A stretch of DNA of 64,000 nucleotides from an uncultured Actinomycetota bacterium (GTDB lineage Bacteria > Actinomycetota > Humimicrobiia > Humimicrobiales > Humimicrobiaceae). Within the stretch, counting starts at the first letter, position 1, and each line of letters opens with the position of its first letter. Both the position numbers and the translations under genes were made by a program. Shown one piece after another: positions 35,164 through 55,023 of this stretch. Location: positions 69,985-133,984 of the forward strand of contig CAZRML010000036.1 of NCBI GenBank assembly GCA_964601205.1. The letters are read 5' to 3'. Below the pieces are notes generated by a model. That model did not search any database. It saw only the letters and a program-made list of their open reading frames with translations, and was not told the DNA's origin.

Positions 35164-36339
35164 TTATTTACTTTTATAAACCACTTTGCCTTTTACCAGG
35201 GTTTCATCAACTTCAAAGTTTTCATTTAATATGACTATATCGGCATCTTTACCCGGTTCAAGACTCCCTTTTCTATTCTCAACTCCCAGTCTTCTCGCAG
35301 GATTTATAGTTGCCATTCTGATAGCATCCACCAATGATATACCTGCTATATCCACCATATTTCTCACAGCTCTATCCGGGGTTAGAATGCTTCCCGCCAG
35401 TGTACCATCCGCCAGTCTAGCTTCACCATTCTTAACTGAAACCTCCTGTCCGCCAAGTTCATATGAACCATCTGGCATACCTGCTGCCCTCATAGCATCT
35501 GTGATAAGAATTATTTTTTCCATCTCTTTAACCTTAGTTACCATCTTCATGGCTAAAGGATGCAAATGTATCCCGTCAGAAATCATTTCCACTATTATTT
35601 CCGGAGAAAATAGTGCTGCTCCTACAATACCGGGTTCCCTATGTGCAAATCCCGTCATAGCATTGAATATGTGAGTAACATGACTTATACCCGCTTTAAC
35701 ACCTTCGCGTGCCTGCTCATAAGTGGCATTGGAATGTCCAATTGAGATGATAATGCCATGCTTATGTAACCATTGTATAAGGTCAAGTGCGCCGGGCATC
35801 TCAGGTGCCACAGTAGTTATACGAATAATATTTCCTGAAGCTTCATTAAATTCAATAAATTCATCTATGGAAGCATTTCTTATATCCTCCTCTTTCTGAG
35901 CACCTTTCCTTATTGGATTTATATAGGGACCTTCAACATTTGCACCCAGAACCTCAGAATATCCTGTACCTCTAACAAATGCTTCATTAACACTTTTAAG
36001 GCTTTTTAAAATCCTATCCTTACTCATGGTCATAGTAGTAGGGAGAAAAGCTGTGGTGCCAAATCTGGAATGTGCCCTGGATATTTCTTTTATCGCATCG
36101 TAATTTCCATCCATTGTATCAAAACCGCCGCCGCCATGTACATGTATATCAATAAAACCCGGGACAATAAAACCATCAGTAACATTGATAACTTCTGAAT
36201 TTGAAGTCCCGGCTATATTTTTTTTATCTTCCACTGAAACAATTTTCCCATCCTCTATAACTACAGCTCTGTCTTTTACCAATTCAAAAGGAGTTATCAG
36301 TGTACCGGTTAAAATTATACTTTTTTTATTACTATCCAT
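35164..36339 (-). CDS. nagA: N-acetylglucosamine-6-phosphate deacetylase
   Basis: IDIHVHGGGG metal-binding motif. Amidohydrolase fold. Confidence 0.85.
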   Translation of the reverse strand: MDSNKKSIILTGTLITPFELVKDRAVVIEDGKIVSVEDKKNIAGTSNSEVINVTDGFIVPGFIDIHVHGGGGFDTMDGNYDAIKEISRAHSRFGTTAFLPTTMTMSKDRILKSLKSVNEAFVRGTGYSEVLGANVEGPYINPIRKGAQKEEDIRNASIDEFIEFNEASGNIIRITTVAPEMPGALDLIQWLHKHGIIISIGHSNATYEQAREGVKAGISHVTHIFNAMTGFAHREPGIVGAALFSPEIIVEMISDGIHLHPLAMKMVTKVKEMEKIILITDAMRAAGMPDGSYELGGQEVSVKNGEARLADGTLAGSILTPDRAVRNMVDIAGISLVDAIRMATINPARRLGVENRKGSLEPGKDADIVILNENFEVDETLVKGKVVYKSK

Positions 36340-36389: not shown

Positions 36390-37781
36390 CTACTTATCTT
36401 TTTCTATTAATGGAAGGCTGGCAGCAGCAATAGATTGGCCTACTCTTCTGCTGGATTCATCGGGAAGGCTTAAAGTAATTTTACTATAAAGTTCAGGAAA
36501 TTCTTTTCTTAGAACTTCTTCGGCGTTTTGTAATATTATCTGACCACCCTGCCCTGAAGTAACTCTTCCAAGAATAAGAACATTTTCTATATCATAAAAA
36601 TTTTCATAATAAGCAATGCTGTAACCGAGGTAACAACCAATTGTCTCAAAAATTTTTCCGGCTGACTCATCGCCCTTTTCTACCATACTCTGAATAGACT
36701 TTAGTTTCTCTGCAGGTGTTTTTTTATCATCAAGAGTAATTCCCGCTTTTTCAGCGAGTCTTATCACTGCTACCTGTGAAAAATATTGTACCCCGCATCC
36801 ACAGTCACCGGACCATTCATCCAGAGGTGCATCGGAATTCATATCAACAGGTATGAAAGCCAGTTCATTTAGCCAGTTGTTAATATTTCCTTTTTTATTT
36901 ATATATCCTCCCGCTTCGCTGGATCCCATGGCTATACCTAAAACTCCATTTCTTTTCAGGGACATGGAACCGGCCAGAGCAGTAACCTCACCATCGTTTA
37001 TTACTTTAAGAGGAACTCCCCACTTTTTTTGAATATCTAAAAAGATATTTTTAACTTTTTTGTCAAAAAGCTCTCTGGGTATACCTCTGAATATTGAACC
37101 GTTCATTACTCTGTTATTTATATATATTCCAGCAGAGCTTCCCCCTATGGCATCAACACGGGGCATATGAGCTGCGGCATGGTGTAACATGGACATTATT
37201 TCATGATAATGATAAGAGGGATCGGTCTTAGTACCCGGATTCCAGACAACTTCCTCGCTGAAAATTGCCTTCCCATCTATAACAGCGCTTACTTTTCTGT
37301 CACTTGCACCAAGGTCAAAACCAATACGGCATCCTTCAAGATTTCCTCCCAGCGATATAGATTCTTCCCCGGCAGAAGGGATTTCATCAATATTCATATT
37401 AACCACTTGAAAAGGTTTCTCATATATGCCGGACATAAACCCGGCATCAAAAGCACGTTCACCTCTTCTGGAATATATTCTTTTTATACGATTACCAATT
37501 GTATTTGACCCACCAATTATTACTTTATGCCCACCATAAATCCAGAGAAGTGTCTTTATTAACCGCTCAATATATTGATAATTAAAGGAAGAAAATACAG
37601 AATCATCCGAAAAAACACGGGTTTTATATACCAGCCGACATTCATTTCCTTTTTCAATACCTATTGATAAAGGAGCATCATAGTTAGAATTCCTGACGCT
37701 TTCAATAAAAGCCCTTTGCCATAAAATAGCAGGCTGAAATTTATCATCAAGGGGAGGATTACACTTCATTCTGGTCTCCAA
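36390..37781 (-). CDS. putative sugar kinase (ASKHA/ROK-like fold) with ~150-aa N-terminal domain of unknown function
   Basis: C-terminal two-thirds shows a GFDLGASDRK phosphate-1-like motif and Gly-rich segments (GIAMGSSEAGG). Has a partial ROK-like Cys motif (GDCGCG). Sits between nagA and the ROK regulator. Confidence 0.45.
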   Translation of the reverse strand: METRMKCNPPLDDKFQPAILWQRAFIESVRNSNYDAPLSIGIEKGNECRLVYKTRVFSDDSVFSSFNYQYIERLIKTLLWIYGGHKVIIGGSNTIGNRIKRIYSRRGERAFDAGFMSGIYEKPFQVVNMNIDEIPSAGEESISLGGNLEGCRIGFDLGASDRKVSAVIDGKAIFSEEVVWNPGTKTDPSYHYHEIMSMLHHAAAHMPRVDAIGGSSAGIYINNRVMNGSIFRGIPRELFDKKVKNIFLDIQKKWGVPLKVINDGEVTALAGSMSLKRNGVLGIAMGSSEAGGYINKKGNINNWLNELAFIPVDMNSDAPLDEWSGDCGCGVQYFSQVAVIRLAEKAGITLDDKKTPAEKLKSIQSMVEKGDESAGKIFETIGCYLGYSIAYYENFYDIENVLILGRVTSGQGGQIILQNAEEVLRKEFPELYSKITLSLPDESSRRVGQSIAAASLPLIEKDK

Positions 37782-37837: not shown

Positions 37838-39052
37838 TCATGAAGAAACAGAAAAATAAAATATTTCTTTTAGAGGAATAGCCGCAGAAGCAATTATCCT
37901 GAAATCCTTCCCCAGGGAAATAGAGCATATTTCTAACTTATCTGTTAAAATCTCAAGGGCTTTTTTAAACACTATCTTTTTTACTTCAGAAATAAGAAAA
38001 AAGTTATTGTATGCAATCTTTCCACCCAGTATTATTACATCAGGATTTAATATGTTAACGAGATTAATAATTCCTATTGCAAGATATCCAGCAGTCTCAA
38101 CTGTAATTTCCTTTGCAAGCTTATCATTTCTATCCAGTGCTTCACGATAAATATAAGGGGTAACCCTGGCTATATCACCTTTTGCCAGCTCAATCATAAT
38201 GGTGTCTTTCCCATTTTCTACAGAAGTAAGTATCCTGGAATAAACAGCAGGCCAGTTTATATAATTTTCAAGACAGCCCCTGTTTCCGCAATCACACTTC
38301 ACTCCATTTTTATCTATAGTAGTATGACCAAATTCACCTGTTCCACCACTACTACCACGAACTATGTGGCCATTTACTATAATACCTGCCCCTACACCAT
38401 CGCCAATCGTAATATATATTAAATTCTCCAGATCTTTATATGCTCCAAATCTCTTCTCTGCCAGTACAATAGCATTTGTATCATTTTCCAACCAGACTTT
38501 AAGTTTAAATTTTTTCTCAATTATTTCTTTTAATGGGATGTTTTTTAATTTCAGTTTTGTATTTTCATAAATTACAGCTTTGTCCACACTTATAATTCCG
38601 GGAGAGGTAACAGAAATTCCAATACACCTCCTTAAATCATTCCTGGAATATGTATTCAAGAATTTATTAATAGATTCTAAAAGATACCCAATAAATTTTT
38701 CTCCCGTTAATTTATTTACCTGATAAATTTCCTCTCTCTTAATTCCCGCCTCTAAATTTGTTTCAGCTATTTTTACATAGGAGTTTGTAGTTGCAACTGC
38801 AATAATGAATTTACTATCAGAAGAGAACCTTAATAGTATGGGTTTTCTACCGCCGCTTGACTTTCCCACACCTTCTTCATAAACAAGCCCCTGCTTTATT
38901 AACTTTTTAACTGCCGCTGTTACAGTTGTGGAGCTTATTTTATTTTTTTTGGCTATTTCGCTACGTGAAATTGGACCATTGTTTTGAATGGTCTTAAGAA
39001 TTATTGACCTGTTTAATTCCTGGATTAATTTTAAATCGCCGGTTCTTTGCAT
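37838..39052 (-). CDS. ROK-family transcriptional repressor (NagC/XylR-like)
   Basis: N-terminal winged helix-turn-helix ([30 protein letters not shown]). ROK domain with [10 protein letters not shown] zinc motif. Confidence 0.85.
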
Positions 39053-39065
39053 TTTAATTTTAATT

Positions 39066-39158
39066 AATATTATTACCCTAAGATACTTACTTTCTCCAGT
39101 GACTTTATTAAGTTACTCCATAATATATTAACCTCAGTTTATTGTCAATAGAATTTTA
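39066..39158 (-). promoter_or_regulatory. conserved ~93-bp promoter/operator element, copy A
   Basis: About 93% identical to 55024-55116. On the minus strand it carries TTGACA-N17-TATTAT. Downstream lies the imperfect dyad AGTAACTTAATAAAGTCACT. Confidence 0.6.
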
Positions 39159-39371: not shown

Positions 39372-40790
39372 CTATCTTACATCAAAAATCTTACCTGGAT
39401 TCATGATACCATTGGGGTCAAAAGCTTTCTTAATTCTTCTCATTAAATCTATTTCCGCCGGGCTGCATACAATCCCCATAAAATCTTTCCTTTTAGAGCC
39501 AATACCATGCTCGCCGCTTAAAGTCCCCCCGAGCTTTTTTGTCGCCTGATACAGCTCTTTTAAAGCTTCTGCCTCAAGAGCATACCATTCTTCCATTGTG
39601 CTTTCTGGATTTTTAACCAGCGTTGCATGCAGGTTTCCATCACCAGCATGGCCGTAACATGGAATTTTTATACCATACTTTTTAGAAATCCCGTCCAGCT
39701 CTAACATTAAGTCAGGAATTACTGATATCGGCACTACTATATCTTCCAGACTCTGATGAGGACTAAAAACCATAAAAGCTTCTGCAATATTACGCCTAAC
39801 ACTCCATATTCTTTCCTGGGTTGTATAGTTGTCTGCCCAGTATACCTCCAGGGCGCCTTCTTTTATGCACATCTCTCCAACTGTTTCAGCATCCTGAGAA
39901 ACTATATCTTCCCTGTTTCCATCAACCTCTATTATTAACATAGCCCCTGCGCTCTTATAGGGAAGCTTTTCATTTAAATACTGGCATGACGCCTGAACAG
40001 AGATCTTGTCCATAAATTCTATTGAGGTAGGAACAATCTTTGCTTTGGTCATAATTATGGGAACCATCTCAATGGCAGATTTAACATCTTTAAATAATAC
40101 AAGTAAGTCAATTTTTGCCGTGGGAAGTGGAATCAATTTTATTATTACCCTGGTAACAATACCTAAAGTACCTTCTGAACCTATTATGAGCTGTTTTATA
40201 TCATAGCCTGTTACATCTTTTAGAAGTTTGCCTCCAAGACTGACTATCTCACCTTCCGGAGTAACCAGTTCCAGCCCCATAATGTAGCGGCCTGTGACCC
40301 CGTACTTGACAGCCCTTCCACCCCCGGCATTCTCAGCCACGTTACCACCAATAAAACAGGTTTCTACGCTCATAGGATAACCGGCATAAAATAAACCTTT
40401 TTCAGAAATAATTTCATTTACTTCATTAGTTATTACCCCCGGCTCCAGTGTCATCATCATATTGTTGTAATCTATTTCTAAGATACGGTTCATCTTTTCA
40501 AAAGATATTACAATCCCGCCAAATACTGGGATAGCACCACCGGAAAGACCACTTCCGGCCCCACGGGGAGTAACCGGTATTAATCTACTGTTTGCCAGTT
40601 TTAGAATACTGGCTATCTCTTCTGCAGAGCCAGGGGTCACTACAACTTCCGGCATATGACCATATTGCTCTGAGGGTGTTTCATCATGTGAGTAAGCTTC
40701 TATCTTTTCCCTGCCGGTTAAAACATTTTTACTGCCGACAATTTCAGCTAATTTATTTAAAATTTCCTCTGTTACCAGATTATATTTCAT
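39372..40790 (-). CDS. FAD-linked 2-hydroxyacid (lactate/glycolate) dehydrogenase, GlcD/LctD-like
   Basis: FAD_binding_4 (PCMH) domain plus FAD-oxidase C-terminal domain. Immediately downstream of etfBA. Confidence 0.8.
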   Translation of the reverse strand: MKYNLVTEEILNKLAEIVGSKNVLTGREKIEAYSHDETPSEQYGHMPEVVVTPGSAEEIASILKLANSRLIPVTPRGAGSGLSGGAIPVFGGIVISFEKMNRILEIDYNNMMMTLEPGVITNEVNEIISEKGLFYAGYPMSVETCFIGGNVAENAGGGRAVKYGVTGRYIMGLELVTPEGEIVSLGGKLLKDVTGYDIKQLIIGSEGTLGIVTRVIIKLIPLPTAKIDLLVLFKDVKSAIEMVPIIMTKAKIVPTSIEFMDKISVQASCQYLNEKLPYKSAGAMLIIEVDGNREDIVSQDAETVGEMCIKEGALEVYWADNYTTQERIWSVRRNIAEAFMVFSPHQSLEDIVVPISVIPDLMLELDGISKKYGIKIPCYGHAGDGNLHATLVKNPESTMEEWYALEAEALKELYQATKKLGGTLSGEHGIGSKRKDFMGIVCSPAEIDLMRRIKKAFDPNGIMNPGKIFDVR

Positions 40791-41791
40791 CTTGACCGGC
40801 CCCTTTTTTTAAGTCTTTCTTTAATCAAAGGTACGACCTCAAAAAGATCTGCTACTATTCCAAAGTCTGATATCTTAAAAATCTGTGCGTCAGGGTCGCT
40901 GTTAATTGCTATAATAGTATCTGATGTCTTTATGCCGGCTAAATGCTGGATAGAGCCCGAAATGCCTATGGCTATATATAATTTTGGAGATACTGTTTTG
41001 CCGCTTAAGCCAACCTGATGGGGATAGGATATCCAGCCCCTATCAACCGCGTCCCTTGATGCGCCTATTGAGCCGCCCAGGTTTTTAGCCAGGTCATAAA
41101 TAAGGCTAAAATTTTCTTTTTTCTTCAGTCCCTTTCCACCGGATACCACAATATCCGCATCCTGAATATTTTCTGCTTCATCTTCAGTTTTTCTAAATTT
41201 TATTCTTTCTACTCTTCCATCAATTAACCCGGGCTTTAGCTTAATTTTAATAATTTTACCTTTTCTACTGCTGTCCAGGGGAGCCGGCCTGGTTGACTTC
41301 ATCCTGACTGTAGCCATCTGTGGCTTGCTTTGAGGAGTTTTAATTGTTGCCAGGATGTTACCTCCAATAGCAGGTCTTGTCTGAAGAAGATTGCCAGTAT
41401 CTTTTTCAATATCAAGCTCGGTACAATCAGCAGTAAGTCCGGTTTCAAGTCTTACGGCAACATGGGGCATTAAAGTTCTGCCACCTGTTGTAGCACCGGC
41501 TATTACAATTTCCGGTTTATATCCTTTAATCAAATCCACCAGGACATTGCTATAGTTTTCTACAATAAAGTAATTTAACCTGGGATCATCTACCAGATAA
41601 ACCTTATCGGCCCCTCTATATATGAGCTCGCTTAATTTATCATCACTTATATCATGGCCCAGAAGCACTGACGCCAGCTCTACTCCTAAACTGTTAGCCA
41701 GCTTCCTACCACGGGTTAAAATCTCATAAGATACTTCCCTTATTTTCCCATCACTCTGTTCGGCTATAGTCCAGACACTGTTAGAACTCAC
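40787..41791 (-). CDS. etfA: electron transfer flavoprotein alpha subunit
   Basis: ETF alpha N-terminal domain and C-terminal FAD-binding domain. Overlaps the downstream dehydrogenase start by 4 nt. Confidence 0.85.
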   Translation of the reverse strand: MSSNSVWTIAEQSDGKIREVSYEILTRGRKLANSLGVELASVLLGHDISDDKLSELIYRGADKVYLVDDPRLNYFIVENYSNVLVDLIKGYKPEIVIAGATTGGRTLMPHVAVRLETGLTADCTELDIEKDTGNLLQTRPAIGGNILATIKTPQSKPQMATVRMKSTRPAPLDSSRKGKIIKIKLKPGLIDGRVERIKFRKTEDEAENIQDADIVVSGGKGLKKKENFSLIYDLAKNLGGSIGASRDAVDRGWISYPHQVGLSGKTVSPKLYIAIGISGSIQHLAGIKTSDTIIAINSDPDAQIFKISDFGIVADLFEVVPLIKERLKKRGRSR

Positions 41792-41804
41792 CTGTCATAT
41801 CTCC

Positions 41805-42602
41805 TTAAATTAATTTTTCTTTTTGAATAAAATCTACCAGTCTGTCAACAGCTTCTGAGAGCTCCTCTTCGTCAGCCGGCCTTAAAACTGTACCGCCTCT
41901 TGCTACCTTAGGATGGCTTATCCTAACTACACGGGTAGGAGAACCTTTTAGTCCTAGCTTTTCCTTATCAAGCTTTAAATCATCTGCTGACCATATCGGT
42001 ATTTCTGTCTTTTTAGCCTTCTTCTTTCCCCTTAGTGTAGGAAGCCTCGGATAACTTATTTCTTTTACCACAGTAAGAAGGCAGGGAAGTGGTAACTTTA
42101 GAGTTTCATATCCATCCTCAACCAGCCGCTCCACTATTATCTTTTTACCGGAAATTTCTACAATTTTACTTACATAAGTTGCAATAGGAATATCAAGTAA
42201 CGAACCTATGCCGGGACCTACCTGCCCGGTATCACCATCAGTGGCGCGCTCTCCGGCTAAAATCAAATCATAATTTCCTATCTTCTGTATCGATTTAGAC
42301 AGGGTAAAAGATGTGGCCCAGGTATCAGAACCTTTAAATTCTTTTCCTGCCAGAAGTATTCCTTCATCACAACCCATGGAGATTGCTTCTTTTAAAGCCT
42401 TTTCCGCACCCGGGGGACCCATTGAAATTACTACTATTTTCCCGCCATATTTTTCCTTTAACTGTATGCCAACTTCAATGGCATACAGGTCAAGGGGGTT
42501 GACTATGCTTTCTACCCCTTCCCTTATCATAGTGCCTGTGGCCTCATCCATTTTTACATTCCCTGTTTCGGGAACCTGTTTTATGAGGATGATAATTTGC
42601 AA
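41805..42602 (-). CDS. etfB: electron transfer flavoprotein beta subunit
   Basis: ETF beta fold. Conserved N-terminal MQIIILIKQVP motif. Confidence 0.85.
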   Translation of the reverse strand: MQIIILIKQVPETGNVKMDEATGTMIREGVESIVNPLDLYAIEVGIQLKEKYGGKIVVISMGPPGAEKALKEAISMGCDEGILLAGKEFKGSDTWATSFTLSKSIQKIGNYDLILAGERATDGDTGQVGPGIGSLLDIPIATYVSKIVEISGKKIIVERLVEDGYETLKLPLPCLLTVVKEISYPRLPTLRGKKKAKKTEIPIWSADDLKLDKEKLGLKGSPTRVVRISHPKVARGGTVLRPADEEELSEAVDRLVDFIQKEKLI

Positions 42603-42788
42603 TTTATTCTCCTATGCTTGTAACAATCATAGATTTAATATTCTTTTCTAGTTTCATACTATATATAACTATTGAATTATTCGTATTTTTAATTCCCACA
42701 ATTATCTTCTATGCTACATTTTCAATAAAGAGCTTTCAGTAATAAAACCTAAACAAAATAATTATCACCTTATAAACTTCATTAAAAA

Positions 42789-44588
42789 CTATCGTTTATT
42801 CTTAATACACTCAATCGCCCTTTTAACCGGCGAATCAGAAAATTTCTCCTCAGATGAACTTTTTTGTATTAATTCAATAGTTTCAAATAGAGCTTCACAT
42901 GCATCCAGGTATTTTAATCCTGTCAAATCTGATATAATTCTGCTTCCCCTATCAATTAGTTTCTTATTAGTTGGATTTACATATACCATAACATTCTTTA
43001 CGATTCTTCCCATTCTTGCCATGGTTGCCGTAGAAATTGTGTTAAATACTAATTTGATTGCTGTATGTAAGAATAAGTCCAGTTGGGATTCCGGGGCATT
43101 ATAAGGAATATTCATTACTATATCTTTATCAATATTTTTCGGTAGAATGTCATTTATAATGATATATCCCTTTCTATTATACTTTTTTATATGATTATCA
43201 AATAATTTCCTATATTGAGAATTTTCTTCTTCATACTTAGAGACTTCCCTTCCAGCAAGAAATATTATTGCCGTAGAAGCAGCATTTTGATATCTACCCG
43301 GGCTGTCTTCATAACCAATTTGAAATTTATATATCTCTGAATTACTAATTTTAGGGGGTGATTCGCATAAATTAGACGAAGCCCCCATTGATTCATATAA
43401 ATCTGAATCCCAGTTTAGCCCACGGGGCTCTCTCATGAGCATATTAAACCATGCAGATTTTGTATCAATTAATGGATTTTTTACAAACGCCCATGATTGC
43501 GGTGATTTAAAATCGTCATTTTTTCTAAAATGGGGAATACTAAAAGTTGGTGCTCTTTCTGTGGTATCCGTAAGTATATCAAGCATAAAGGAATCAGAGA
43601 AATAGGTTATAAAACCTTCACGACCATATACTTCCTCTTCCAATTCCACAACACATGCAAGCTGATTAAGAGATTCCCTGGAAGATATAGTTGAAAGCAA
43701 CCCTTTATATCTTTCTACATAATCATCTTTGCACCATTTTTTAATATTCAAAACAGATAATTCATCAATTGTTAATATTTTGTTAAGAACTTTAGCTATT
43801 GCCATCTCAAGAGCCGTACCTATAACCAGCAATTCAACAGTAATGGCCTGCATTCTTGTAGATCCTGTAATAGCCATAGGTCCTGTCGTGAGGTCAAGTT
43901 TGGTTATTTTTTCCTCTTTTATGACTTCCCTTGACCTCTTAAGATGATTTGAAAGGATACCGGCCGGATTGTTAAAGACAAAAAAGACTTTTGCTCCGGA
44001 TTCAAATGCCTGCCATACAGTACCTATTACTGATGGTGTTTCCCCTCCTTCGGTTATAGCTACAAACACATCCCCCTCTTTAATTTTAGCTTCTTTAACC
44101 TGTTGCCTACCGAATGATTGGAAATCTTCAAAATTTTCCAGGGACCTGATTAAAGCGAAATCTCCACCAGTCATAATGCTATAGGAAGAATCGGATATTA
44201 AAGGAAGTTTTGTTTTTAATGCAGGCAATAATTCTTCTGCTCTACTCCAGAATGTACGCCACATTTTTTCCAAAAGTATCCCGAGCCTGCCTGTAGACCC
44301 GCAACCACTGAAACATATTCTCTTTCCTTCTAGCATAGCAGCATACAAAGAACTAACTAACTCATTAAATTCATCTGTTTCCAATACTTTTTTATAAACA
44401 GGGACTATATCCTCATCTACTCTAAAAAGCATTTTCAATCCGGACTGTGTATTATTCTGGACCGTCTCACTAAAATTCATTGTTTTTGGGTGCTGGGATT
44501 CTGTAATCAATTCACCCAAGTGGAATTCTTTTTCATTTTTTATAAACTCTTCTGCTTTCTTTCTTGAATTTGGTAGGCTCATCACCAC
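42789..44588 (-). CDS. GCKR/MurQ-family double-SIS-domain protein (N-acetylmuramic acid-6-phosphate etherase-like)
   Basis: N-terminal region aligns to the MurQ signature (ESQHPKT...FSGCGSTGRLG). About 600 aa with two SIS domains, as in glucokinase-regulator family proteins. Confidence 0.6.
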   Translation of the reverse strand: MVMSLPNSRKKAEEFIKNEKEFHLGELITESQHPKTMNFSETVQNNTQSGLKMLFRVDEDIVPVYKKVLETDEFNELVSSLYAAMLEGKRICFSGCGSTGRLGILLEKMWRTFWSRAEELLPALKTKLPLISDSSYSIMTGGDFALIRSLENFEDFQSFGRQQVKEAKIKEGDVFVAITEGGETPSVIGTVWQAFESGAKVFFVFNNPAGILSNHLKRSREVIKEEKITKLDLTTGPMAITGSTRMQAITVELLVIGTALEMAIAKVLNKILTIDELSVLNIKKWCKDDYVERYKGLLSTISSRESLNQLACVVELEEEVYGREGFITYFSDSFMLDILTDTTERAPTFSIPHFRKNDDFKSPQSWAFVKNPLIDTKSAWFNMLMREPRGLNWDSDLYESMGASSNLCESPPKISNSEIYKFQIGYEDSPGRYQNAASTAIIFLAGREVSKYEEENSQYRKLFDNHIKKYNRKGYIIINDILPKNIDKDIVMNIPYNAPESQLDLFLHTAIKLVFNTISTATMARMGRIVKNVMVYVNPTNKKLIDRGSRIISDLTGLKYLDACEALFETIELIQKSSSEEKFSDSPVKRAIECIKNKR

Positions 44589-44705
44589 TCCTTTTATTTT
44601 TTCTCTATTATTTACAGTAGATCTTAAAATAATTATTCAACGATTTAGTTTTTCAATAATCGCTCTTTCATATGGAAATATCTATTTTACTTCTTTAACT
44701 CAGGA

Positions 44706-46094
44706 CTAATATAAACTTCCAATGGGTGATTTATATTTTTTCTTTTTGGTTTTTTGTTTGAATTCATCTTTAGCAGCATTAATTATATTTCTATTCCTAA
44801 ATAGTCTTATGCAACTTAAAGCTAATATTTTTGCCGCCAATATCATCCCGGCATGCCCAATATGCATACCACTAGACGCTGTCACCTGCCAGGAATGAGG
44901 GGATACGCCCAGCGGAAAGCAAGCTGTAATAAATTTAGCTGCAGGAACAATCCAGCTAACATCCCCAAGATCAGTTGAACCTGGATAATTAATACCCGCC
45001 CCATAAGGAGGTATCATGGTATCGCAAAGATACCTATTTTCTAAATATTTATAAGATCCATCATCTAAATGGGATATATAAAGAGCTTCTTCTCTCTGTC
45101 CTCTATTAAAATTAGAGGCCATTTCTCTGGCAAAATCTTTATCTTTTTGAGTAAATTTTTCTAATTCTATTTTTTCCATAATATCCCACAACATTTTATT
45201 CAATACATCATTATTTAAAAAATTATAGCATCCAGTTATTAATTTTATTTCTAAACTGGTATCAGTCATCAATGCTGCTCCTCTGGCTATGTTTAAAACT
45301 CTTTCATATATTTCTTCCACAGCTTCCCTCCCTGGAGCCCTAACAAAGTACCATACTTCGGCCAGATCTGGAACGATATTCGGCATTATTCCGCCTTTTG
45401 TTATTACATAATGCAAACTGGCATCTTTTATTATATGTTCCCTTAAATAATTAGAACCAATATCAGTTAACTCTACTGCGTCTAATGCACTTCTTCCATT
45501 GAATGGATCTCCAGCAGCATGTGAAGCTATTCCCTTAAAAATAAGCTTAAATGAATTCATTGCCTGAGTCCCACCCAGGTTTATTGAGTTATAACAATCA
45601 GGATGCCATGTTAGGCATATGTCTACATCATTAAAAAGCCCTTCTTTAACCATTATTATTTTACCTGTAATAGTTTCTTCTGCCGGACAACCATAATACC
45701 TGATTGTTCCGCTAAATCTTCCTTCTTTAATAGCTTCTTTTACAGCAACTGCTGCAAACATTGCACCAGTACCTAAAAGATTGTGCCCACAGCCATGCCC
45801 GGACTCCTTTCCCTTAATGGGCTTTTTAAATGGTTTTTTCTCCTGGCCCAAACCCGGTAGAGCGTCGTACTCGCCCAATAAACCTATCACTGGCTTACCG
45901 TTACCATATTCAGCTATGAAAGCATTCTGACAATCCCTTGATTTTTTTATTTTAAATCCTTTAGTAGATAATACATCCATCTGGAGCCTTGCTGATTTAA
46001 CTTCCTTCTGGGACAATTCTGCATATTGCCATATTTTATTAGAGATTCTGATATATTCTTTTTTATTTTCGTTAATAAATTTAATTACCGACAT
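44706..46094 (-). CDS. M20D-family amidohydrolase (AbgB-like)
   Basis: M20 metal-binding motifs (GHGCGHN, HPDC..E). Dimerization domain. Confidence 0.75.
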   Translation of the reverse strand: MSVIKFINENKKEYIRISNKIWQYAELSQKEVKSARLQMDVLSTKGFKIKKSRDCQNAFIAEYGNGKPVIGLLGEYDALPGLGQEKKPFKKPIKGKESGHGCGHNLLGTGAMFAAVAVKEAIKEGRFSGTIRYYGCPAEETITGKIIMVKEGLFNDVDICLTWHPDCYNSINLGGTQAMNSFKLIFKGIASHAAGDPFNGRSALDAVELTDIGSNYLREHIIKDASLHYVITKGGIMPNIVPDLAEVWYFVRAPGREAVEEIYERVLNIARGAALMTDTSLEIKLITGCYNFLNNDVLNKMLWDIMEKIELEKFTQKDKDFAREMASNFNRGQREEALYISHLDDGSYKYLENRYLCDTMIPPYGAGINYPGSTDLGDVSWIVPAAKFITACFPLGVSPHSWQVTASSGMHIGHAGMILAAKILALSCIRLFRNRNIINAAKDEFKQKTKKKKYKSPIGSLY

Positions 46095-46126
46095 TTTTTA
46101 CTAATTGGATAACCCATATTAAAAAT

Positions 46127-46148
46127 TTAACAATAAAGTTATTGTTGA
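46127..46148. promoter_or_regulatory. near-perfect palindrome TTAACAATAA-AG-TTATTGTTGA upstream of M20 gene
   Basis: Arms match 9/10 (core 8-bp arms perfect) with a 2-bp spacer. Lies 33-54 bp upstream of the amidohydrolase start. Confidence 0.35.
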
Positions 46149-46311
46149 TTTACAAAAAAACAATAGTTATTCTAAGATAATCATTCCACATTAAATTTAT
46201 TCCTCTTCAAAAATTATATTCTGAAAAAATGTTAAAGACCCGAAATTAATTAGAGCAATTTCCGGTATACCTTTTGCAATTTAATTTCCTATATTAACCA
46301 ACAAAAAAATG

Positions 46312-47508
46312 CTATTTCTTTATAAAACTATTATCTTTTATCTTTTTTATCAGTTCAGGAATAATTTCATAAAGGTCACCCACCATGCCTATATCAGCAG
46401 TATCAAAAATTGGTGCAGAAGGATCATTATTTATTGCGACTATAAAATCCGATCTTCCCATTCCAGCAAGATGCTGCGCCGACCCGGATATCCCACATGC
46501 TATATAAATCCTGGGCCTGACCGTTTTTCCACTTAACCCCACCTGATGGGGATAGCTTATCCACCCTTTATCAACCGCTACTCTGCTTGCTCCAACCACT
46601 CCACCCAGTGTTTCAGCCAGCTCATTAATAAGTCTAAACCCTTTCTCATTGCCCAGGCCATTACCCCCTGAACAAATAACTTCAGCTTCAATGATATTTA
46701 GATTCTCCTCTATTTTTTCCATCTTCTTTACTTCAACTCTGTCCCGGATTTTTTCTTTATCAAATTTCATATTTACTACTTCACCTTTATATCCGGGAAT
46801 CTTTTCAGCTGGTTTCATAATTTTATATCTAACCGTAGCCATCTGGGGTCTGTTATTGGTACAGATTATGGTTGCCATAATATTCCCGCCAAAAGCGGGT
46901 CTAGTTTGCAGTAAATTTTTGTCTTTCTTATTAATCTCTAATCCCGTACAATCAGCTGTAAGGCCTGTTTCGATACTTGATGAAATTCTTGGTGCGATTG
47001 ACCTTCCAATAGCTGTCCCTCCTATCAGGAAGATGTTTGGTTTAATTTTATTTACAAAGTCAATTAAAATATTAGAATAAGGATCATCTCTGAAATTTTC
47101 CAGGCATTCGTCGTCATAAACAAATACTTTATCTACTCCATAGCTTATTAAATCTTCTGCCTTTTCTGTTACGCCCTTCCCCAGAAGCACGCAGTATAGC
47201 TTCTCACCAGTTTCTTTTGCCAGTTCTCTACCCTTTCCTATTAACTCATAGACCACAGGGGAAACCATACCATCTTTATACTCTCCAAAAATTAGTACCC
47301 CTTTATATCCGGACAGGTCAGCCTTTTTCTTTTCTTTTAATAGTTCAATAGCACCATAAGGACATTCTGAAACACATGCACCGCATAGCTTGCAATCTTC
47401 AGATATTACTGCCAGGCTGTCAATTATTGATATTGCATTAAAAGGACAGGCCTTAATACAAAGACCACAACCTGTACATTTTTCTTTAATAACCCTTATT
47501 TTTTTCAT
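46312..47508 (-). CDS. ferredoxin-fused electron transfer flavoprotein alpha subunit (2x[4Fe-4S] + EtfA)
   Basis: N-terminal CTGCGLCIKACP and CKLCGACVSECP motifs. Followed by complete ETF alpha domains. Confidence 0.85.
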   Translation of the reverse strand: MKKIRVIKEKCTGCGLCIKACPFNAISIIDSLAVISEDCKLCGACVSECPYGAIELLKEKKKADLSGYKGVLIFGEYKDGMVSPVVYELIGKGRELAKETGEKLYCVLLGKGVTEKAEDLISYGVDKVFVYDDECLENFRDDPYSNILIDFVNKIKPNIFLIGGTAIGRSIAPRISSSIETGLTADCTGLEINKKDKNLLQTRPAFGGNIMATIICTNNRPQMATVRYKIMKPAEKIPGYKGEVVNMKFDKEKIRDRVEVKKMEKIEENLNIIEAEVICSGGNGLGNEKGFRLINELAETLGGVVGASRVAVDKGWISYPHQVGLSGKTVRPRIYIACGISGSAQHLAGMGRSDFIVAINNDPSAPIFDTADIGMVGDLYEIIPELIKKIKDNSFIKK

Positions 47509-47518
47509 TAAGAACTCC

Positions 47519-48313
47519 TCATAAAATCTTCTTTTCTTTTAACTTTTCAATTAAAATTTTAGCCTGATATTCTGGCTTTCCTTTTATTATTTCACCTTTA
47601 CCACGGGCCGGAGGAGGAAATATTTTTACAACTTCTGTGGGAGAGCCTTCTGTACCATATCTCTTTTCTTTACCTCCTAAATCTTTTAAGTTCCATGTTG
47701 ATATTGGAGTTTCTTTTGCCATTTTCTGTCTTTTAAAAGATGGGTACCTTGGTTCATTTGCTTCCTTGGTAACTGTAACTACAACCGGTAATTTAGACTC
47801 CACTATTTCGTAATAATCATCTAAAACTCTCTCCAGAGATATCGATCTTTCTTTTAGATCTATAATTTTTCTAACATAACCTATAAACGGAATACCCAGC
47901 TCTTCAGCCAGGCTGGGACCAACCTGTCCGGTATCACCATCAGTGGTCTTCAAACCACACATTATGATATCATAACTACCTATTTTTTTTATACCAGATG
48001 CCAGGGTATAGGCTGTTGCCCAGGTATCAGCGCCGGCAAATTTTTTATCGGTTAGCAAAATAGCATTATTACAACCCATAGCTATAGCTTCTCTTAAAGC
48101 GGCATCGGCCTGAGGGGGCCCCATGCTGATAACATCTACTTCGCCACCGTATTTCTCTTTTAATCTGATAGCTTCTTCAATTGCATACATATCAAATGGA
48201 TTGACCTCAGACAGAACACCCTCACGGATCAGAGTCCCTTTTTCCTGATCCATCATCACATCTGTTTGTGCAGGTACCTGCTTTATACATACTATTATTT
48301 TTAATTTATCCAA
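47519..48313 (-). CDS. electron transfer flavoprotein beta subunit (second copy)
   Basis: ETF beta fold. Paired with the ferredoxin-fused EtfA. Confidence 0.85.
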   Translation of the reverse strand: MDKLKIIVCIKQVPAQTDVMMDQEKGTLIREGVLSEVNPFDMYAIEEAIRLKEKYGGEVDVISMGPPQADAALREAIAMGCNNAILLTDKKFAGADTWATAYTLASGIKKIGSYDIIMCGLKTTDGDTGQVGPSLAEELGIPFIGYVRKIIDLKERSISLERVLDDYYEIVESKLPVVVTVTKEANEPRYPSFKRQKMAKETPISTWNLKDLGGKEKRYGTEGSPTEVVKIFPPPARGKGEIIKGKPEYQAKILIEKLKEKKIL

Positions 48314-48350
48314 TTAAATCCCCCGTTTACTTTAAAAGTTGATTACTTTT

Positions 48351-49220
48351 TTAACCTTTCACTGCTCCTTCAACAAGACCCCGGATAATTACTTTCTGGA
48401 ACAGTAATGCTAATATTACCACGGGAATACTTGAAATTACCCCCGTAGCTAAAATTTTTGTCACTTCCATATTCTCCATATTACTTAGAACACCGACATA
48501 CACTGTAAATGGTGTAGATTTTGTTTTAGTCAGTATCAGACCTATTAAAAAATTAGACCATGCTATGATAAAAGTGTAAACAGACACAGCTCCGATTCCA
48601 GGCAATGCAACAGGTATAATTATTCTTAATAATGCTTTAAATCTTGTACAACCATCAACCAGGGCAGCTTCTTCTAAAGCATCTGGTATAGTATCATAAA
48701 ATGACTTCATTACCCATATTGAAAAAGGTAAGGTATACGCAGTTAATACAATTACCAGCCCCCATATAGTGTCATAAAGGCTCAGATTTACAAACTGAAG
48801 ATATAACGGGATCAGAATTGCCATCGTTGGAACCATTGATGCAAATAGAAAAAGAAGTAATATCATATTTCTGCCCCTCATCTTGCTCCTGGATAGAGGG
48901 TAAGCCGCAAGGCATGCACTCACAGTTGCAATTATTGTAGTGGGAATAGCTATTTTTAGACTGTTAATAAATGTAGCAACTGCTCTTTTAGATGAAACCA
49001 TTACATATCTGTAATTTTCAAAAAGTTCTGTTATTGTATTCCATTCGTTGGGAAATAAATGAAAGTTTGGATAATGATTTAAATATAACTCATGTTCACT
49101 CATTAAAGAACTAAAAATCATAATTATGACCGGAAACATAATTACAATAACCGAAGAATAAAGTAAAAAATAAAAAAATGCTCTAAGAAGATTCTCTTTT
49201 GTTTTTGGTTTTATAGACAT
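48351..49220 (-). CDS. ABC sugar transporter permease (MalG-like, CUT1)
   Basis: Six TM helices with an EAA loop (LEEAALVDGCTRF). Confidence 0.8.
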   Translation of the reverse strand: MSIKPKTKENLLRAFFYFLLYSSVIVIMFPVIIMIFSSLMSEHELYLNHYPNFHLFPNEWNTITELFENYRYVMVSSKRAVATFINSLKIAIPTTIIATVSACLAAYPLSRSKMRGRNMILLLFLFASMVPTMAILIPLYLQFVNLSLYDTIWGLVIVLTAYTLPFSIWVMKSFYDTIPDALEEAALVDGCTRFKALLRIIIPVALPGIGAVSVYTFIIAWSNFLIGLILTKTKSTPFTVYVGVLSNMENMEVTKILATGVISSIPVVILALLFQKVIIRGLVEGAVKG

Positions 49221-49256
49221 ATAAATATTTTCTAATTATTTTTATTATTAATTATA

Positions 49257-50171
49257 TTAGTACCTTACTTCCCTGTAAGTTATTCTATAGTAGAATACTG
49301 ATATTATAATTATTAACAATGATACAAAAAACGCTATCGCTGCTCCAAGCCCGAACTTCATAAAAGTAAATGAATAAAGATATGAAATATAATTAAGTAC
49401 AGAAGTAAAATTACCCGGCCCACCTCTGGTTAGTATATAAATCAAATCAAATGCCTTAAAAGTTTCTACAGATAGTAAAATAAATACAATTACCATAGAC
49501 GGCCTGACCAGTGGTAAGGTAATTGAAAAAAACCTTCCTACAGGAGACATTCCATCTACACCTGCTGCCTCATATAATTCTTTTGGAATAGTTTTTAGTG
49601 ATGCTGAAAGTAGGAACACGGTAATTGGCAAAATTTTATATACAGTCGTTAACACAATCATAATAAAAGCAGGCCATTGTTCAGATTGCCATTCTCTAAA
49701 ATTATTTAGTAATCCCATAGCTATCAATATATTATTAAAAGTACCAAGCCTGGGGCTAAATATCCATTTCCACATAAGCCCTACTACAACAGGAGGAAGT
49801 GCCCATGGTATTAAAAGAAGAGCCATTATTAAGTTGGAACCTCTTAAATCCATATTTAATAATACAGCCAGGAAAAGACCAAAAACTATTGCCAGGGCAG
49901 TAACAACCAGTGCAAAAAGTACTGTTATCCAGACTGAGTGGGCTATGTCAGGTATTTTAAATATGTTTATATAATTTTCAATTCCAATAAACTTCGGTGT
50001 CTTACCCAGTCTCCAATCAAACAAACTCATAACAAATGAATAGATAACAGGGAACACCATAACAAATAATATAAATACTATAGCGGGCAACATCATATTT
50101 AAATTAAAACTGTTTCTTCTTAAGGATAGCGGAATCTCTTTTTTTCTATTATTTAAATACATATTTACCAT
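49257..50171 (-). CDS. ABC sugar transporter permease (MalF-like, CUT1)
   Basis: Six TM helices. EAA-like loop (YEAAGVDGMSPV). Confidence 0.8.
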   Translation of the reverse strand: MVNMYLNNRKKEIPLSLRRNSFNLNMMLPAIVFILFVMVFPVIYSFVMSLFDWRLGKTPKFIGIENYINIFKIPDIAHSVWITVLFALVVTALAIVFGLFLAVLLNMDLRGSNLIMALLLIPWALPPVVVGLMWKWIFSPRLGTFNNILIAMGLLNNFREWQSEQWPAFIMIVLTTVYKILPITVFLLSASLKTIPKELYEAAGVDGMSPVGRFFSITLPLVRPSMVIVFILLSVETFKAFDLIYILTRGGPGNFTSVLNYISYLYSFTFMKFGLGAAIAFFVSLLIIIISVFYYRITYREVRY

Positions 50172-50234
50172 ATAATACTATCTAATAACAAAAAAGGAAG
50201 GCAGGTGAAAAATCACCTGCCTTTTAACCATTTA

Positions 50235-51647
50235 TTATTCCAAATATGATTCCCACGTTGAATAGAATAAATCCTCAAGCTGGTTGAGTGTTTCTTCTTC
50301 ATCAATTTTATTACTAAAGTAGTTTTCAAAAATCGGTATACTTCCATTCTCTATTTCACTCATATTTGGTTCTACATATCTTACCGACCTGCTGGCCATA
50401 TCCAATGAAATCGGTATATAGGGGTACTCGGTAACATATTCCTCATCATTTGCAAGTGCTAATCTTACCGGGCAGAACCCATCATGCTCGTTTCTCCACT
50501 TCTGTATTGGAATAGATGAATAGAACAGGCAAAAAGCTAACGCATTATCCAGGTTTTCAGCACCATCTCTAATTACATACCCCATATCACCTGTAACACA
50601 ATAGCTTTCATTATCTCCATCTACAGGTACTTCGGCCCAACCTATCTTATCCGAATTTTCCGGGAAGTTATTTAAAATATCAGCATAAACCCATCCCATA
50701 TAATTCCAGGATAGACCTACACCGCCTGCTGAAAATGAAGACCTTGACTGTCCAGGGTCACCGGCTGCCATAACGGGATCAGAAAAATCACTGGCATAAA
50801 GTGCTTTTTCTACCTGCAGAGCTCTTATACCGTATTCATCATTAAACAATGCTTCGGGGTTACTTGGATCCTCGTTCCAGTATTCGCCGCCCACATTCTT
50901 TAATAATGCATAAAATACAGGATTCCAGCTCTGACCGGGTTGTGACACTCCTGTAAAACCATAAGTTTCAGGTAACCCGTCATTATCTTCATCTACGGTA
51001 CAATCCGCTGCACACTGGAGAAAATCATTAATCTGTTTTGGTGGTGTATCATAACCTGCTTTTGATAGTATTTCCGTATTATACTGGATACCCCATATTC
51101 CAACAAAGAAAGGAACACCAAACCACTTGTCCCCGGAGCCAACAGCCTTGTGAATGCCCGGTACTATATCATCTTTTAATTCCTGTGGAATCATATCGGT
51201 TACATCCATTAGATAATCCTTAAACTGGTTTGTCCATGCCCCCCAGCTCCACATAAGATCAAAATCTGCAGTTCCGGTTTCGAGTTCCATAGCTATTTTT
51301 GATGCATACTCTGCATATGGAATCGCTACCCAATTAACTTCTACTTCAGGATACGCATCTAAAAACATCGATGTAACGCTTTCTTCCAGAGCCATTTCAT
51401 CTTTATAAGAATAAATATTTAACTGTCCGGATGGTTTAAGCCCTGCTTTCTCAATCCAGTAAGTTGCAGTTTCCACCGCTTCTTCTACTTCTTCAGCTTC
51501 TTCTGCTACTTCCTCTGCTTCTTCTGCTACTTCTTCTGCTACTTCCTCAGCTTTTGCGCAACCCATTGGTAAAATAGCCATTGAAATTGTAAAAACTACA
51601 ATAGCTACCCATGCAATTGACTTAACTTTAGAAATCATCTTACACAA
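50235..51647 (-). CDS. ABC transporter extracellular solute-binding lipoprotein (family 1) with acidic AEEV repeat linker
   Basis: Signal peptide with lipobox (MGC). Low-complexity AEEVAEEVAEEAEEV tether. SBP_bac_1 fold. Confidence 0.8.
   Translation of the reverse strand: MCKMISKVKSIAWVAIVVFTISMAILPMGCAKAEEVAEEVAEEAEEVAEEAEEVEEAVETATYWIEKAGLKPSGQLNIYSYKDEMALEESVTSMFLDAYPEVEVNWVAIPYAEYASKIAMELETGTADFDLMWSWGAWTNQFKDYLMDVTDMIPQELKDDIVPGIHKAVGSGDKWFGVPFFVGIWGIQYNTEILSKAGYDTPPKQINDFLQCAADCTVDEDNDGLPETYGFTGVSQPGQSWNPVFYALLKNVGGEYWNEDPSNPEALFNDEYGIRALQVEKALYASDFSDPVMAAGDPGQSRSSFSAGGVGLSWNYMGWVYADILNNFPENSDKIGWAEVPVDGDNESYCVTGDMGYVIRDGAENLDNALAFCLFYSSIPIQKWRNEHDGFCPVRLALANDEEYVTEYPYIPISLDMASRSVRYVEPNMSEIENGSIPIFENYFSNKIDEEETLNQLEDLFYSTWESYLE
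51476..51552. repeat. in-frame tandem repeat (12-nt GCTTCTTCTGCTAC-type units) encoding (A/E)EEV acidic linker of the SBP
   Basis: Directly visible repeated gcttcttctgctacttc units. Encodes the low-complexity linker after the lipobox. Confidence 0.7.
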
Positions 51648-51851
51648 TCTCCTTTCACACTTTAAAATAGTGCTGAGTCTTCAATCTGATAATCTTTTTT
51701 ACTATAATTATCACCTCCTAATATCTCTAAAAAGATTTATAAAATTTTTCACCTCCTGCTTTATTTTTTTTTATCCAAATTACATACAAAATAACTTTTT
51801 AATATCCATCAATTCGTTAGAGCTTTTACAAATAATTAATACAAATATATT

Positions 51852-53048
51852 TTAATAACCATTGAAATCGTAAATACAGCAAGAATCTTTTACCAGCTCA
51901 GCTATATCTCTTACCTCTATATCATAACCCCTGCTATCCATAGCCCCCTTTAGCATTTGCAGACATAGAGGACAGGCCACTGCAACTACGTCAACGTCTA
52001 ATTCCTTGATCTGGTCTGCCCTGGCCAGATCCATTTTTACATTGGGAAGATCCATCCATAGAACAGGCCCTCCACCTCCGCAGCAATATGAATTTCCTCT
52101 TGACAGCTCAAGTTCAACCAGTTCAACTCCTGGAATGCTTTTCAATATTTCCCTGGGTTCCTCATAAATATTATTACGTCTCCCCAGATAACATGAATCA
52201 TGGTATGTAATTTTTTTATTTATCTTCTTACCAATTTTAATTATTTTTGAATTTATTAGTTCCCAGAGTACCTGGGTATAATGTTTAACCTCTATATTTT
52301 CCAGACCTTCATAATAGTTTAAGAAAATGTCATAATCGTGAGGAGAAAAGCAAATTATCTTCTTAATTTTATACTTTTTAAAAATCTCCAGATTATGTTC
52401 AACCATTTCTTCATATATTCCTTCATCTCCCAGCATCATAGCCTGGGAACCGCTATCCATTTCCTGGCTACCAAGCATGCGAAATTTTACTCCTGCTCTT
52501 TTCAAAATATCTATTACAGCTTCTGCAGCAACTCTTGCATCTTCATCATAGGGGACAAACGACCCAACATATAGAAGAGTTTCAGCTTCTTCATCCTTAA
52601 TACCCATCTTATTAACCCAGTCATCTTTAACTTTTGGCAGACCACCATAAGGATTTCCGAACTTCATGATATTGCTCAGGACATCCCTTATTCTTGGATC
52701 AATGTTTCCGTTTTCTACTTTCATTGCCCTCAAAATTTCTGTAGTAGTTGCTCCGCTTACAACGTTCTTCCGGGTTTTTTTGGTAAGAAATACATTTTCA
52801 CCACAATACCATTCACATGCTCTACAGCCACTGCAGGCATAAAGTATTTCGTCAGGTATGTCAGAAATATTATATTCACCCTTTAATACTCCGAGCGCTA
52901 CCTGCGCAATGCCTCTTGGTGAAACAGACCCGATTTGTAACTGATTGTATGCCGGGCAATCCTTATTGCACAATCCGCAAGAGCAGCTCAAACAATTCTC
53001 TAGCGCTTTACCATAATCCTTTAACGTAACTATATTGTGTTTATCCAT
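51852..53048 (-). CDS. Fe-S oxidoreductase, GlcF/HdrD-like (2x[4Fe-4S] ferredoxin + two CCG domains)
   Basis: CLSCSCGLCNKDCP and CSGCRACEWYC cluster motifs. C-terminal CCG domains (SYCCGGGG, CPLC). Confidence 0.8.
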   Translation of the reverse strand: MDKHNIVTLKDYGKALENCLSCSCGLCNKDCPAYNQLQIGSVSPRGIAQVALGVLKGEYNISDIPDEILYACSGCRACEWYCGENVFLTKKTRKNVVSGATTTEILRAMKVENGNIDPRIRDVLSNIMKFGNPYGGLPKVKDDWVNKMGIKDEEAETLLYVGSFVPYDEDARVAAEAVIDILKRAGVKFRMLGSQEMDSGSQAMMLGDEGIYEEMVEHNLEIFKKYKIKKIICFSPHDYDIFLNYYEGLENIEVKHYTQVLWELINSKIIKIGKKINKKITYHDSCYLGRRNNIYEEPREILKSIPGVELVELELSRGNSYCCGGGGPVLWMDLPNVKMDLARADQIKELDVDVVAVACPLCLQMLKGAMDSRGYDIEVRDIAELVKDSCCIYDFNGY

Positions 53049-53061
53049 AACCTAAAACTCC

Positions 53062-54585: not shown

Positions 54586-54753
54586 TGCTCTCCTTCCTAT
54601 TAATAAATTTCCCAGAACACTTTTAAAAAATAATTACCCTACTATTTAAATATTTATTACATTCCTAACAAAAAAATTTTTTTTAAAAACTAAATATGCT
54701 AATCCCCGGTAGAGAAATTATATCATACGTATTTTAGAGAGATTTAACCTGTT

Positions 54754-55017
54754 TTAACCATTCAATTTAAGATAATTTAGAGATCTCGTCACCTCCAAAA
54801 AAATAGCCAGCGATTTATAGTCGGAATTAACTTTATGGTGCCTACCATTCATCTCTATTAAATCTACAGTAGCTTTCTTTTCTATAGTAGAGCTTAATTT
54901 GTTTTCTTTTTTCATCTCATACATTGAATTGTGGCTATTTACCTTTCTAAGAACGATCCCGGGAATAATAGATTTATTTAATTCCTGAATTAATTTTACG
55001 TCTCTAATTCTCAACAT
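54754..55017 (-). pseudogene. decayed 5' fragment of ROK-family regulator gene (helix-turn-helix-only 87-aa ORF), probable remnant of a partial duplication
   Basis: N-terminus MLRIRDVKLIQELNKSII parallels [18 protein letters not shown] of the ROK regulator at 39052. The helix-turn-helix region is similar but diverged, and the ROK domain is absent. Preceded by conserved element copy B. Confidence 0.5.
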
Positions 55018-55023
55018 AAATTT

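Follow-up and report, generated by a model that had tools for sequence, protein, structure and literature searches.

A promoter-operator element is present twice within the 64-kb window (the whole stretch of DNA from an uncultured Actinomycetota bacterium that was analyzed), once directly upstream of the gene for a ROK-family transcriptional regulator (copy A, positions 39062 to 39158, minus strand) and once at the head of a 13-gene catabolic operon (copy B, 55019 to 55115, minus strand). Each copy carries a predicted sigma-70-type promoter, TTGACA-17-TATTAT, followed by a 29-nt putative protein-binding block at approximately +1 to +29. Judging from sequence, the element is probably a ROK operator-promoter of the NagC/Mlc-like kind, subject to autoregulation and controlling the catabolic operon as well; the block is most likely the operator to which the adjacent regulator binds. 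The regulator would then repress its own gene, ROK2, and nagA from copy A and the 13 transport and catabolic genes from copy B, and an amino-sugar effector would release it, so that both units are switched on together. Copy B probably arose by duplication of the promoter, the operator, and approximately 55 to 70 ROK codons to a site in front of the operon, after which selection kept the promoter and the block while the orphan gene stub decayed.

The repeat, its promoter hexamers, and the 29-nt block

An unbiased repeat search returned 39062 to 39158 versus 55019 to 55115 as the longest direct repeat within the window. Aligned in register, the two copies are identical at 87 of 97 nt (90%), far beyond chance, and they share a perfect 39-nt run (39079 to 39117 in copy A coordinates); upstream of them the flanks are without a match (15/60 nt only). 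When the alignment is carried into the 5' coding sequence, identity at the DNA level is 79% over 161 nt, with 8 gaps. This duplication had been reported in a preliminary description of the window, and the pairwise alignment bears it out, although the identity of ~93% given there is slightly high (83/93, or 89%, over the same span) and the copy B coordinates, 55024 to 55116, are 1 nt out of register (28/93 identical as given; 55023 to 55115 is correct). All genes around both copies lie on the minus strand. The placement of the two copies at the same distance upstream of their ORFs, also part of that description, is approximate only, as the -10 hexamer is 67 nt from the ATG in copy A and 59 nt in copy B. 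Copy B is also present in a 96% relative, L111, at positions 9494 to 9580; apart from two substitutions in its right dyad arm (see below), the element there is 97% identical.

The previously noted TTGACA-N17-TATTAT was found in both copies, where it matches the sigma-70-type consensus at 11 of 12 positions; these are the two best sigma-70-like matches in the 19 kb between 37.5 and 56.5 kb. In copy A, the -35 TTGACA (39143 to 39148, minus strand) is invariant in ROK orthologs with 68 to 95% protein identity, and the -10 TATTAT (39120 to 39125, minus strand) follows after a 17-nt spacer, with a -10-like hexamer at the same place in the orthologs. The corresponding hexamers of copy B, at 55100 to 55105 and 55077 to 55082 (both minus strand), were recognized as sigma-70-like motif matches. 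Both predicted promoters thus have near-consensus hexamers at a spacing within 16 to 18 nt, and such hexamers are retained upstream of ROK orthologs. Read on the minus strand, AGTAACTTAATAAAGTCACTGGAGAAAGTAAGT comes after TATTAT in both copies. The ROK genes of the window clade (92 to 100% identity) have no recognizable Shine-Dalgarno sequence within 15 nt of the ATG, their leader being A/T only (39050 to 39085, minus strand); ROK orthologs at 68 to 83%, unlike the window clade, have AAGGA or GGAG at the usual distance from the ATG.

The conserved 29-nt block, ACTTAATAAAGTCACTGGAGAAAGTAAGT, which we propose as the operator, occupies 39085 to 39113 (minus strand) in copy A, corresponding to columns 10 to 38 of alignment A2, and recurs as an identical sequence in copy B (55042 to 55070, minus strand; alignment A2 and position weight matrix [PWM]). 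It starts 6 nt 3' of the -10 hexamer, which would place it at approximately +1 to +29 of the predicted transcript. The preliminary description had singled out an imperfect dyad, AGTAACTT-AATA-AAGTCACT (39098 to 39117 in copy A, minus strand), which overlaps the 5' part of the block. This 20-mer, AGTAACTTAATAAAGTCACT, occurs exactly twice in the window, with 0 occurrences expected from shuffles, and has an 8-4-8 shape in which 7 of 8 pairs match. Looser dyad patterns gave 6 matches in the window versus 3.7 expected, indicating no additional sites. Across 22 instances, the dyad is invariant only in the inner ACTT-AATA-AAGT (4+4), and the three outer pairs hold in only ~50% of the sequences; pairing is register specific (columns 6 to 25 of A2), with 80% of cells pairing versus 25 to 46% when the register is slid. 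The dyad is therefore present in both copies and its inner part is invariant in orthologs, but the 20 nt are only partly the conserved unit, as conservation extends 13 nt 3' of it, through TGGAGAAAGTAAGT. Within the 29 nt there is a second quasi-symmetry, ACTTA..CA-n-TG..TAAGT, centered on the sole freely variable column (position 39099) and overlapping the first, whose center lies between 39107 and 39108; the block is not a clean palindrome, and neither quasi-symmetry is statistically compelling. In copy B of L111 (block at 9538 to 9566), two substitutions change the right dyad arm from AAGTCACT to AAGACAGT, which could be either drift at tolerant positions or a weakened site.

Since the block lies inside the predicted transcript and the dyad can form an 8-bp hairpin, it might act in RNA, as a 5'-terminal stem-loop or a leader binding site for mRNA stability or translation, rather than as a DNA operator. 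The relative L084 has changes on both arms that produce a perfect palindrome, and one pair shows G-C, G-U, and A-U in different sequences, as such a reading would predict; however, pair counting over the 22 instances gave covariation that was not significant and not above shuffle controls. The RNAalifold consensus has 0 pairs, the leaders are no more stably folded than shuffled sequences (z = +0.9, -0.05, and +0.24) with a dyad hairpin of only -2 kcal/mol, no Rfam match to the element was obtained at E ≤ 1, and the most conserved part, TGGAGAAAGTAAGT, is unpaired. We therefore regard a role in RNA as very unlikely and treat the block as a candidate DNA site.

Conservation in orthologs and the probable link to the ROK regulator

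ROK orthologs were chosen by protein similarity only, and their upstream regions (25+ regions) were then read; the homologs come from uncultured low-GC Actinomycetota (Ca. Hydromicrobium and Humimicrobiia-like bins). They fall into five clades, with protein identities of 92 to 100%, 95%, 81 to 83%, 75 to 76%, and 68 to 72%, and all five retain TTGACA, a -10-like hexamer, and the block, ACTTAATAAAGnCAnTGGnnAAAGnAAGT. From 24 to 29 of the 29 block bases are kept (83 to 100%), whereas third codon positions of the ROK gene are just 49 to 60% identical. The distance from the -10 hexamer to the block varies by clade, between 6 and 13 nt, and the block therefore behaves as an element in its own right rather than as part of the core promoter. 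An nhmmer profile and a PWM were both built without the window copies. The ortholog-only profile recovered copy A (E = 2e-15) and copy B (E = 6e-16) and nothing else in the window, and the block PWM scored 52.9 bits at both copies, compared with ≤8 bits in the rest of the window and a maximum of 4.2 bits in shuffles; it gave 28 matches in 357 kb of related loci and no match of ≥10 bits in 1.15 Mb of unrelated loci.

Because the block is kept while synonymous positions are saturated, we conclude from these alignments that it is under purifying selection, as had been proposed, and that the proof lies in the orthologs and not in the A/B contrast alone. The core idea of the preliminary description, a shared promoter/operator heading both the ROK gene and the FAD-oxidase operon, likewise holds by way of ortholog conservation. 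In a wider alignment, copies A and B differ at 3 of 48 ortholog-invariant columns versus 13 of 57 variable ones (P = 0.028).

The gene behind copy A (37838 to 39052, minus strand) encodes a 404-aa, NagC/Mlc-like ROK-family transcriptional regulator, assigned from Pfam, NCBIfam, and an N-terminal alignment, with an HTH_24/MarR domain at residues 17 to 60 and a ROK domain at residues 107 to 366 (Pfam). The NCBIfam NagC and Mlc models cover residues 4 to 389, that is, the full length, at scores below their equivalog cutoffs (225 versus 650 bits). A Gly/Arg-type linker, SSGGRKP (residues 65 to 71), is kept in all aligned orthologs; in DNA-binding ROK proteins, the Gly/Arg-rich linker that follows the HTH contacts the ends of the operator (PMC4288165). 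Downstream in the copy A unit are a 463-aa ROK-like protein, ROK2 (36390 to 37781, minus strand; Pfam/NCBIfam), and NagA, a GlcNAc-6-P deacetylase that passes the TIGR00221 cutoff (35164 to 36339, minus strand). In the 463-aa protein, the N-terminal ~150 aa form an extension unmatched in Pfam and NCBIfam, and the ROK-domain score is weak; kinase and co-sensor for the regulator are candidate roles.

A link between block and regulator is suggested by more distant ROK orthologs (59 to 63%), in which the recognition helix is changed, with SPTTVSSAVKEF in place of the 12 residues of the window clade. At the same distance from the -10 hexamer, their upstream regions contain ACTTTTTCCAtTGGAAAAAGT, a 21-bp sequence that is perfectly palindromic and has TT/AA at +/-5,6, which is the rule reported for NagC/Mlc sites (PMC4288165). 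The right arm of this palindrome is TGGAGAAAGT of the window block, a match that appears to tie the block to the ROK protein family without settling the binding geometry in the window clade. The locus has a winged HTH and ROK domain, a Gly/Arg linker, a site abutting the core promoter of the regulator's own gene, and further sites at sugar operons, all of which are expected for a ROK operator.

The block might instead bind a factor other than the adjacent ROK protein, such as a global carbon regulator, an activator, or RNA polymerase itself through a promoter element. The connection of ROK protein and site was drawn by us from sequence context, and the block is not the canonical 23-bp ROK palindrome (PMC3553997, PMC4288165), which leaves room for such a factor; on the other hand, every ortholog has the element in front of its ROK gene, the element travels with ROK stubs when it is duplicated, and the operator differs where the ROK recognition helix differs. 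A global site would be expected to recur, but no copies were found elsewhere in the window or in the 1.15 Mb of unrelated DNA. We consider binding by another factor unlikely, and the ROK protein encoded behind copy A the best candidate for the block.

The catabolic operon and the origin of copy B

Directly behind copy B lies an 87-aa ORF (54754 to 55017, minus strand) that is a degenerate stub derived from the 5' end of a ROK gene. Its first 53 to 59 residues are 44 to 46% identical to the ROK N terminus, and no Pfam domain is detectable in it. In L111, whose FAD oxidase is 96% identical and whose whole upstream region is ~95% identical, the ATG of the stub is ACA; the small ROK-fragment ORF of the preliminary description is thus homologous to the ROK N terminus, but it is a decaying pseudogene and not a gene. 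The closest DNA relative of the window stub is the stub of an extra copy in L084 (72% over 195 nt). Copying of the stub from a more distant ROK donor is unsupported, as its protein is equidistant (~45%) from all ROK orthologs. Between the block and the start codon of the FAD oxidase there are 457 nt, which include the stub and an extended -10-like sequence, TGATATAAT, at 54717 to 54725. This sequence could be the core of another promoter that drives the FAD-oxidase operon, a possibility that we do not favor, as it is degraded in L111 to AGATAAAAT; we infer that the copy B promoter is the one driving the 13 genes.

The operon behind copy B (39372 to 54585, minus strand) has the same gene order in L001 and L111. 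Its front part encodes a GlcD-like FAD oxidase, a CCG Fe-S protein, a sugar ABC transporter (solute-binding protein [SBP] and two permeases), EtfB, and Fdx-EtfA, and its rear part encodes an M20 amidohydrolase, a 599-aa MurNAc-6-P-etherase-like SIS protein, EtfB, EtfA, and a GlcD-like FAD oxidase. There are thus two separate sets of GlcD-like FAD oxidase and EtfB/EtfA, with one EtfA fused to a ferredoxin domain, and the 599-aa etherase-like protein is a double-domain protein. The gene set suggests peptidoglycan-sugar breakdown coupled to electron-bifurcating lactate oxidation: from what is established about MurQ, NagA, and the lactate dehydrogenase/Etf complexes of anaerobes, the operon looks like one for taking up and degrading a substrate that contains MurNAc or GlcNAc and for oxidizing the lactate released.

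Several further features were observed in and beside the operon. A strong terminator-like hairpin (50198 to 50223, minus strand; 11 pairs, 6 of them G-C, and a T-run) separates the gene for the binding protein from that for the first permease. A hairpin after the binding-protein gene is in the usual place of the partial termination that sets the ratio of binding protein to permease. An L20-leader Rfam match over this hairpin is below threshold (28 versus 58.7 bits) and is probably due to chance. Inside the solute-binding-protein gene, in its 5' part, repeats with periods of 9 and 12 nt (TCTGCTACTTCT-like; 51472 to 51555) probably encode a low-complexity, Glu/Ala/Val-rich linker after the signal/lipoprotein region. 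Just outside the island, beside nrdR, a gene for a bacterial archaeo-eukaryotic release-factor-like protein (baeRF family 10; 56231 to 57397, minus strand) is kept in L111.

Fdx-EtfA (46312 to 47508, minus strand) and the 507-aa FAD oxidase (53062 to 54585, minus strand) have very few close relatives in the lineage, whereas the ROK protein has hundreds of orthologs. A search of contigs with Fdx-EtfA returned one close relative, L004, on a contig that ends before copy B; the others are distant Etf/ferredoxin genes, and it is these distant loci that served as the 1.15-Mb negative control for the PWM. FAD-oxidase orthologs at 61% (L112 to L114) are located mid-operon and are without the element, and the contig of a 72% ortholog (L115) is too short upstream to show the element region. 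The next-best matches of Fdx-EtfA and the FAD oxidase (55 to 67%) are in bins labelled Bathyarchaeota, Omnitrophota, and Cloacimonadota; sequence comparison suggests that the front of the operon may have been acquired horizontally and then wired to the copy B promoter.

The same arrangement recurs in relatives, where further copies of the element head amino-sugar genes. In L100, a full element with ROK codons 1 to 65 (86% identical to its own ROK gene) is followed by an SIS protein, an ABC transporter, a PIG-L deacetylase, and then the intact ROK gene. In L086, a second element with ROK codons 1 to 24 fused to codons 357 to 404 by an internal deletion (98% and 92% identical to its own ROK) lies upstream of an ABC transporter. 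In L084, a second, divergently oriented element with 22 ROK codons (93% identical to its own ROK gene) lies upstream of an AnmK-like gene; a search with AnmK for more cassette-headed anmK genes found no ortholog above ~46% identity. Because the stubs differ in length and age, at least three separate duplication events are indicated. In L100 (9830 to 10000) and L097 (300 to 417), the intact ROK gene has lost its -35 and -10 hexamers along with the left end of its block (ATTTAATAAAG...) and is now at the end of an operon driven by the upstream cassette copy. In L098 and L101, weaker blocks lie just 3' of the ROK stop codon, before an ABC transporter and a GlcNAc 2-epimerase operon; since these sites are stub-less, the block is kept even without a duplicated stub.

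Repeated copying raises the possibility that the A/B similarity is purely historical, the result of recent duplication or gene conversion, and says nothing about function. The two elements of L084 do not differ at any position between the -35 and codon 4 and share the lineage-specific TTGACT, ATTAACTT, and AAGTTAAT, yet its stub groups with that of the window; this mosaic is best explained by gene conversion between the two copies. The two elements of L086 are 98% identical as well. L084 and the window share only a 4.2-kb promoter-ROK-ROK2-NagA module (92% nucleotide identity), in which homology begins exactly at the -35. Given conversion in L084, some of the similarity between elements of one genome is, on this evidence, historical and not selective, and the argument of the preliminary description, that the element has stayed near-identical whereas the adjoining ORF has diverged, is correct as an observation but insufficient on its own as proof of selection. 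For the window pair, conversion is not needed, as copies A and B (87 to 90% identical) are no more alike than copy B and the elements of other genomes (82 to 89%) or than elements of different genomes among themselves (76 to 97%). Moreover, the -35, the -10, and the block contain none of the 10 A/B differences, which are confined to the -35/-10 spacer, the bases just 3' of the -10, those 3' of the block, and the edges; the block is equally conserved between genomes with saturated synonymous sites, which largely refutes history as the sole explanation. We hold that explanation to be highly improbable, and shared selection on promoter and block remains our reading of the pair.

More tentatively, and as a proposal that may well prove wrong, the promoter, operator, and stub would form a portable cassette that has been copied repeatedly, at least three times, to partly horizontally acquired amino-sugar operons, with conversion keeping the copies alike and functional; segmental duplication or Campbell-type integration, and not point mutation, would then be the main route by which the regulon has grown.

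Relation to known regulators and promoter captures

The sites recognized by ROK regulators are quasi-palindromes of ~23 bp; these proteins usually regulate their own genes, and their targets are sugar transporters and catabolic genes (PMC3553997, PMC9599254, PMC4288165). Shared control of the sort proposed here is ordinary, and our results leave the general understanding of ROK regulation unchanged; what is new is the operator sequence, from an uncultured lineage. For a lineage without a cultured member, it supplies a NagC/Mlc-like regulator with an operator and a regulon that can be tested, and it places under one predicted switch both a predicted pathway for peptidoglycan sugars (MurNAc etherase-like protein, NagA, ROK proteins, and M20 amidohydrolase) and two lactate-dehydrogenase/Etf-like modules. 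Regulon growth by repeated copying of a promoter-operator-stub cassette adds modest interest, as the stubs are traces of natural promoter capture, by which an incoming operon can join an existing regulon in one step.

The closest likeness is to RokL6 of Streptomyces coelicolor, whose autoregulatory inverted repeat was mapped experimentally at -7 to +14, after its own -10, in a gene with a 67-nt leader (bioRxiv 10.1101/2023.09.20.558697). Both are Actinomycetota ROK proteins of ~400 aa with an N-terminal winged HTH, both have a site right after their own -10 and a leader of ~67 nt, orthologs keep the site, and RokL6 controls an amino-sugar-related gene. The RokL6 site, however, is an inverted repeat of the form 8-7-8 that contains GC and serves two divergent promoters, whereas the window block is A/T-rich, only quasi-symmetric, 29 nt long, and common, through duplication, to two co-directional units 16 kb apart.

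The window regulator resembles NagC/Mlc of E. coli in its full-length model alignment, its Gly-Arg linker, and its putative targets in amino-sugar uptake and catabolism, including nagA; NagC/Mlc sites are likewise A/T-rich quasi-palindromes overlapping promoters, and the distant orthologs described above obey the TT/AA +/-5,6 rule. It differs in its score (225 versus 650 bits), in a block that does not fit TT-N9-AA, and in that paired operators and DNA looping are without support in the window. For the Thermotogae ROK regulons and bifidobacterial NagR, which were described by comparative genomics, repression was inferred from the position of the operator relative to the -35 and -10 (PMC3553997, PMC9599254). 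These are also autoregulated ROK repressors, with ~23-bp palindromes upstream of ABC transporters and sugar catabolic operons, but sites there are described as gained at many promoters, in contrast to the whole duplicated promoters with stubs of the regulator gene found here. The mode of capture has a parallel in rnk-citT of the E. coli long-term experiment, where a duplication put a foreign promoter and a truncated fusion ORF before another gene (PMC5918244): in both cases, a leftover stub of the promoter's own gene marks the event. That event took place in the laboratory and involved an unregulated promoter, whereas the captures described here are natural, number three or more in a single lineage, and include an operator; because the duplicated promoters bring this operator with them, the operon behind each would be recruited into the regulon.
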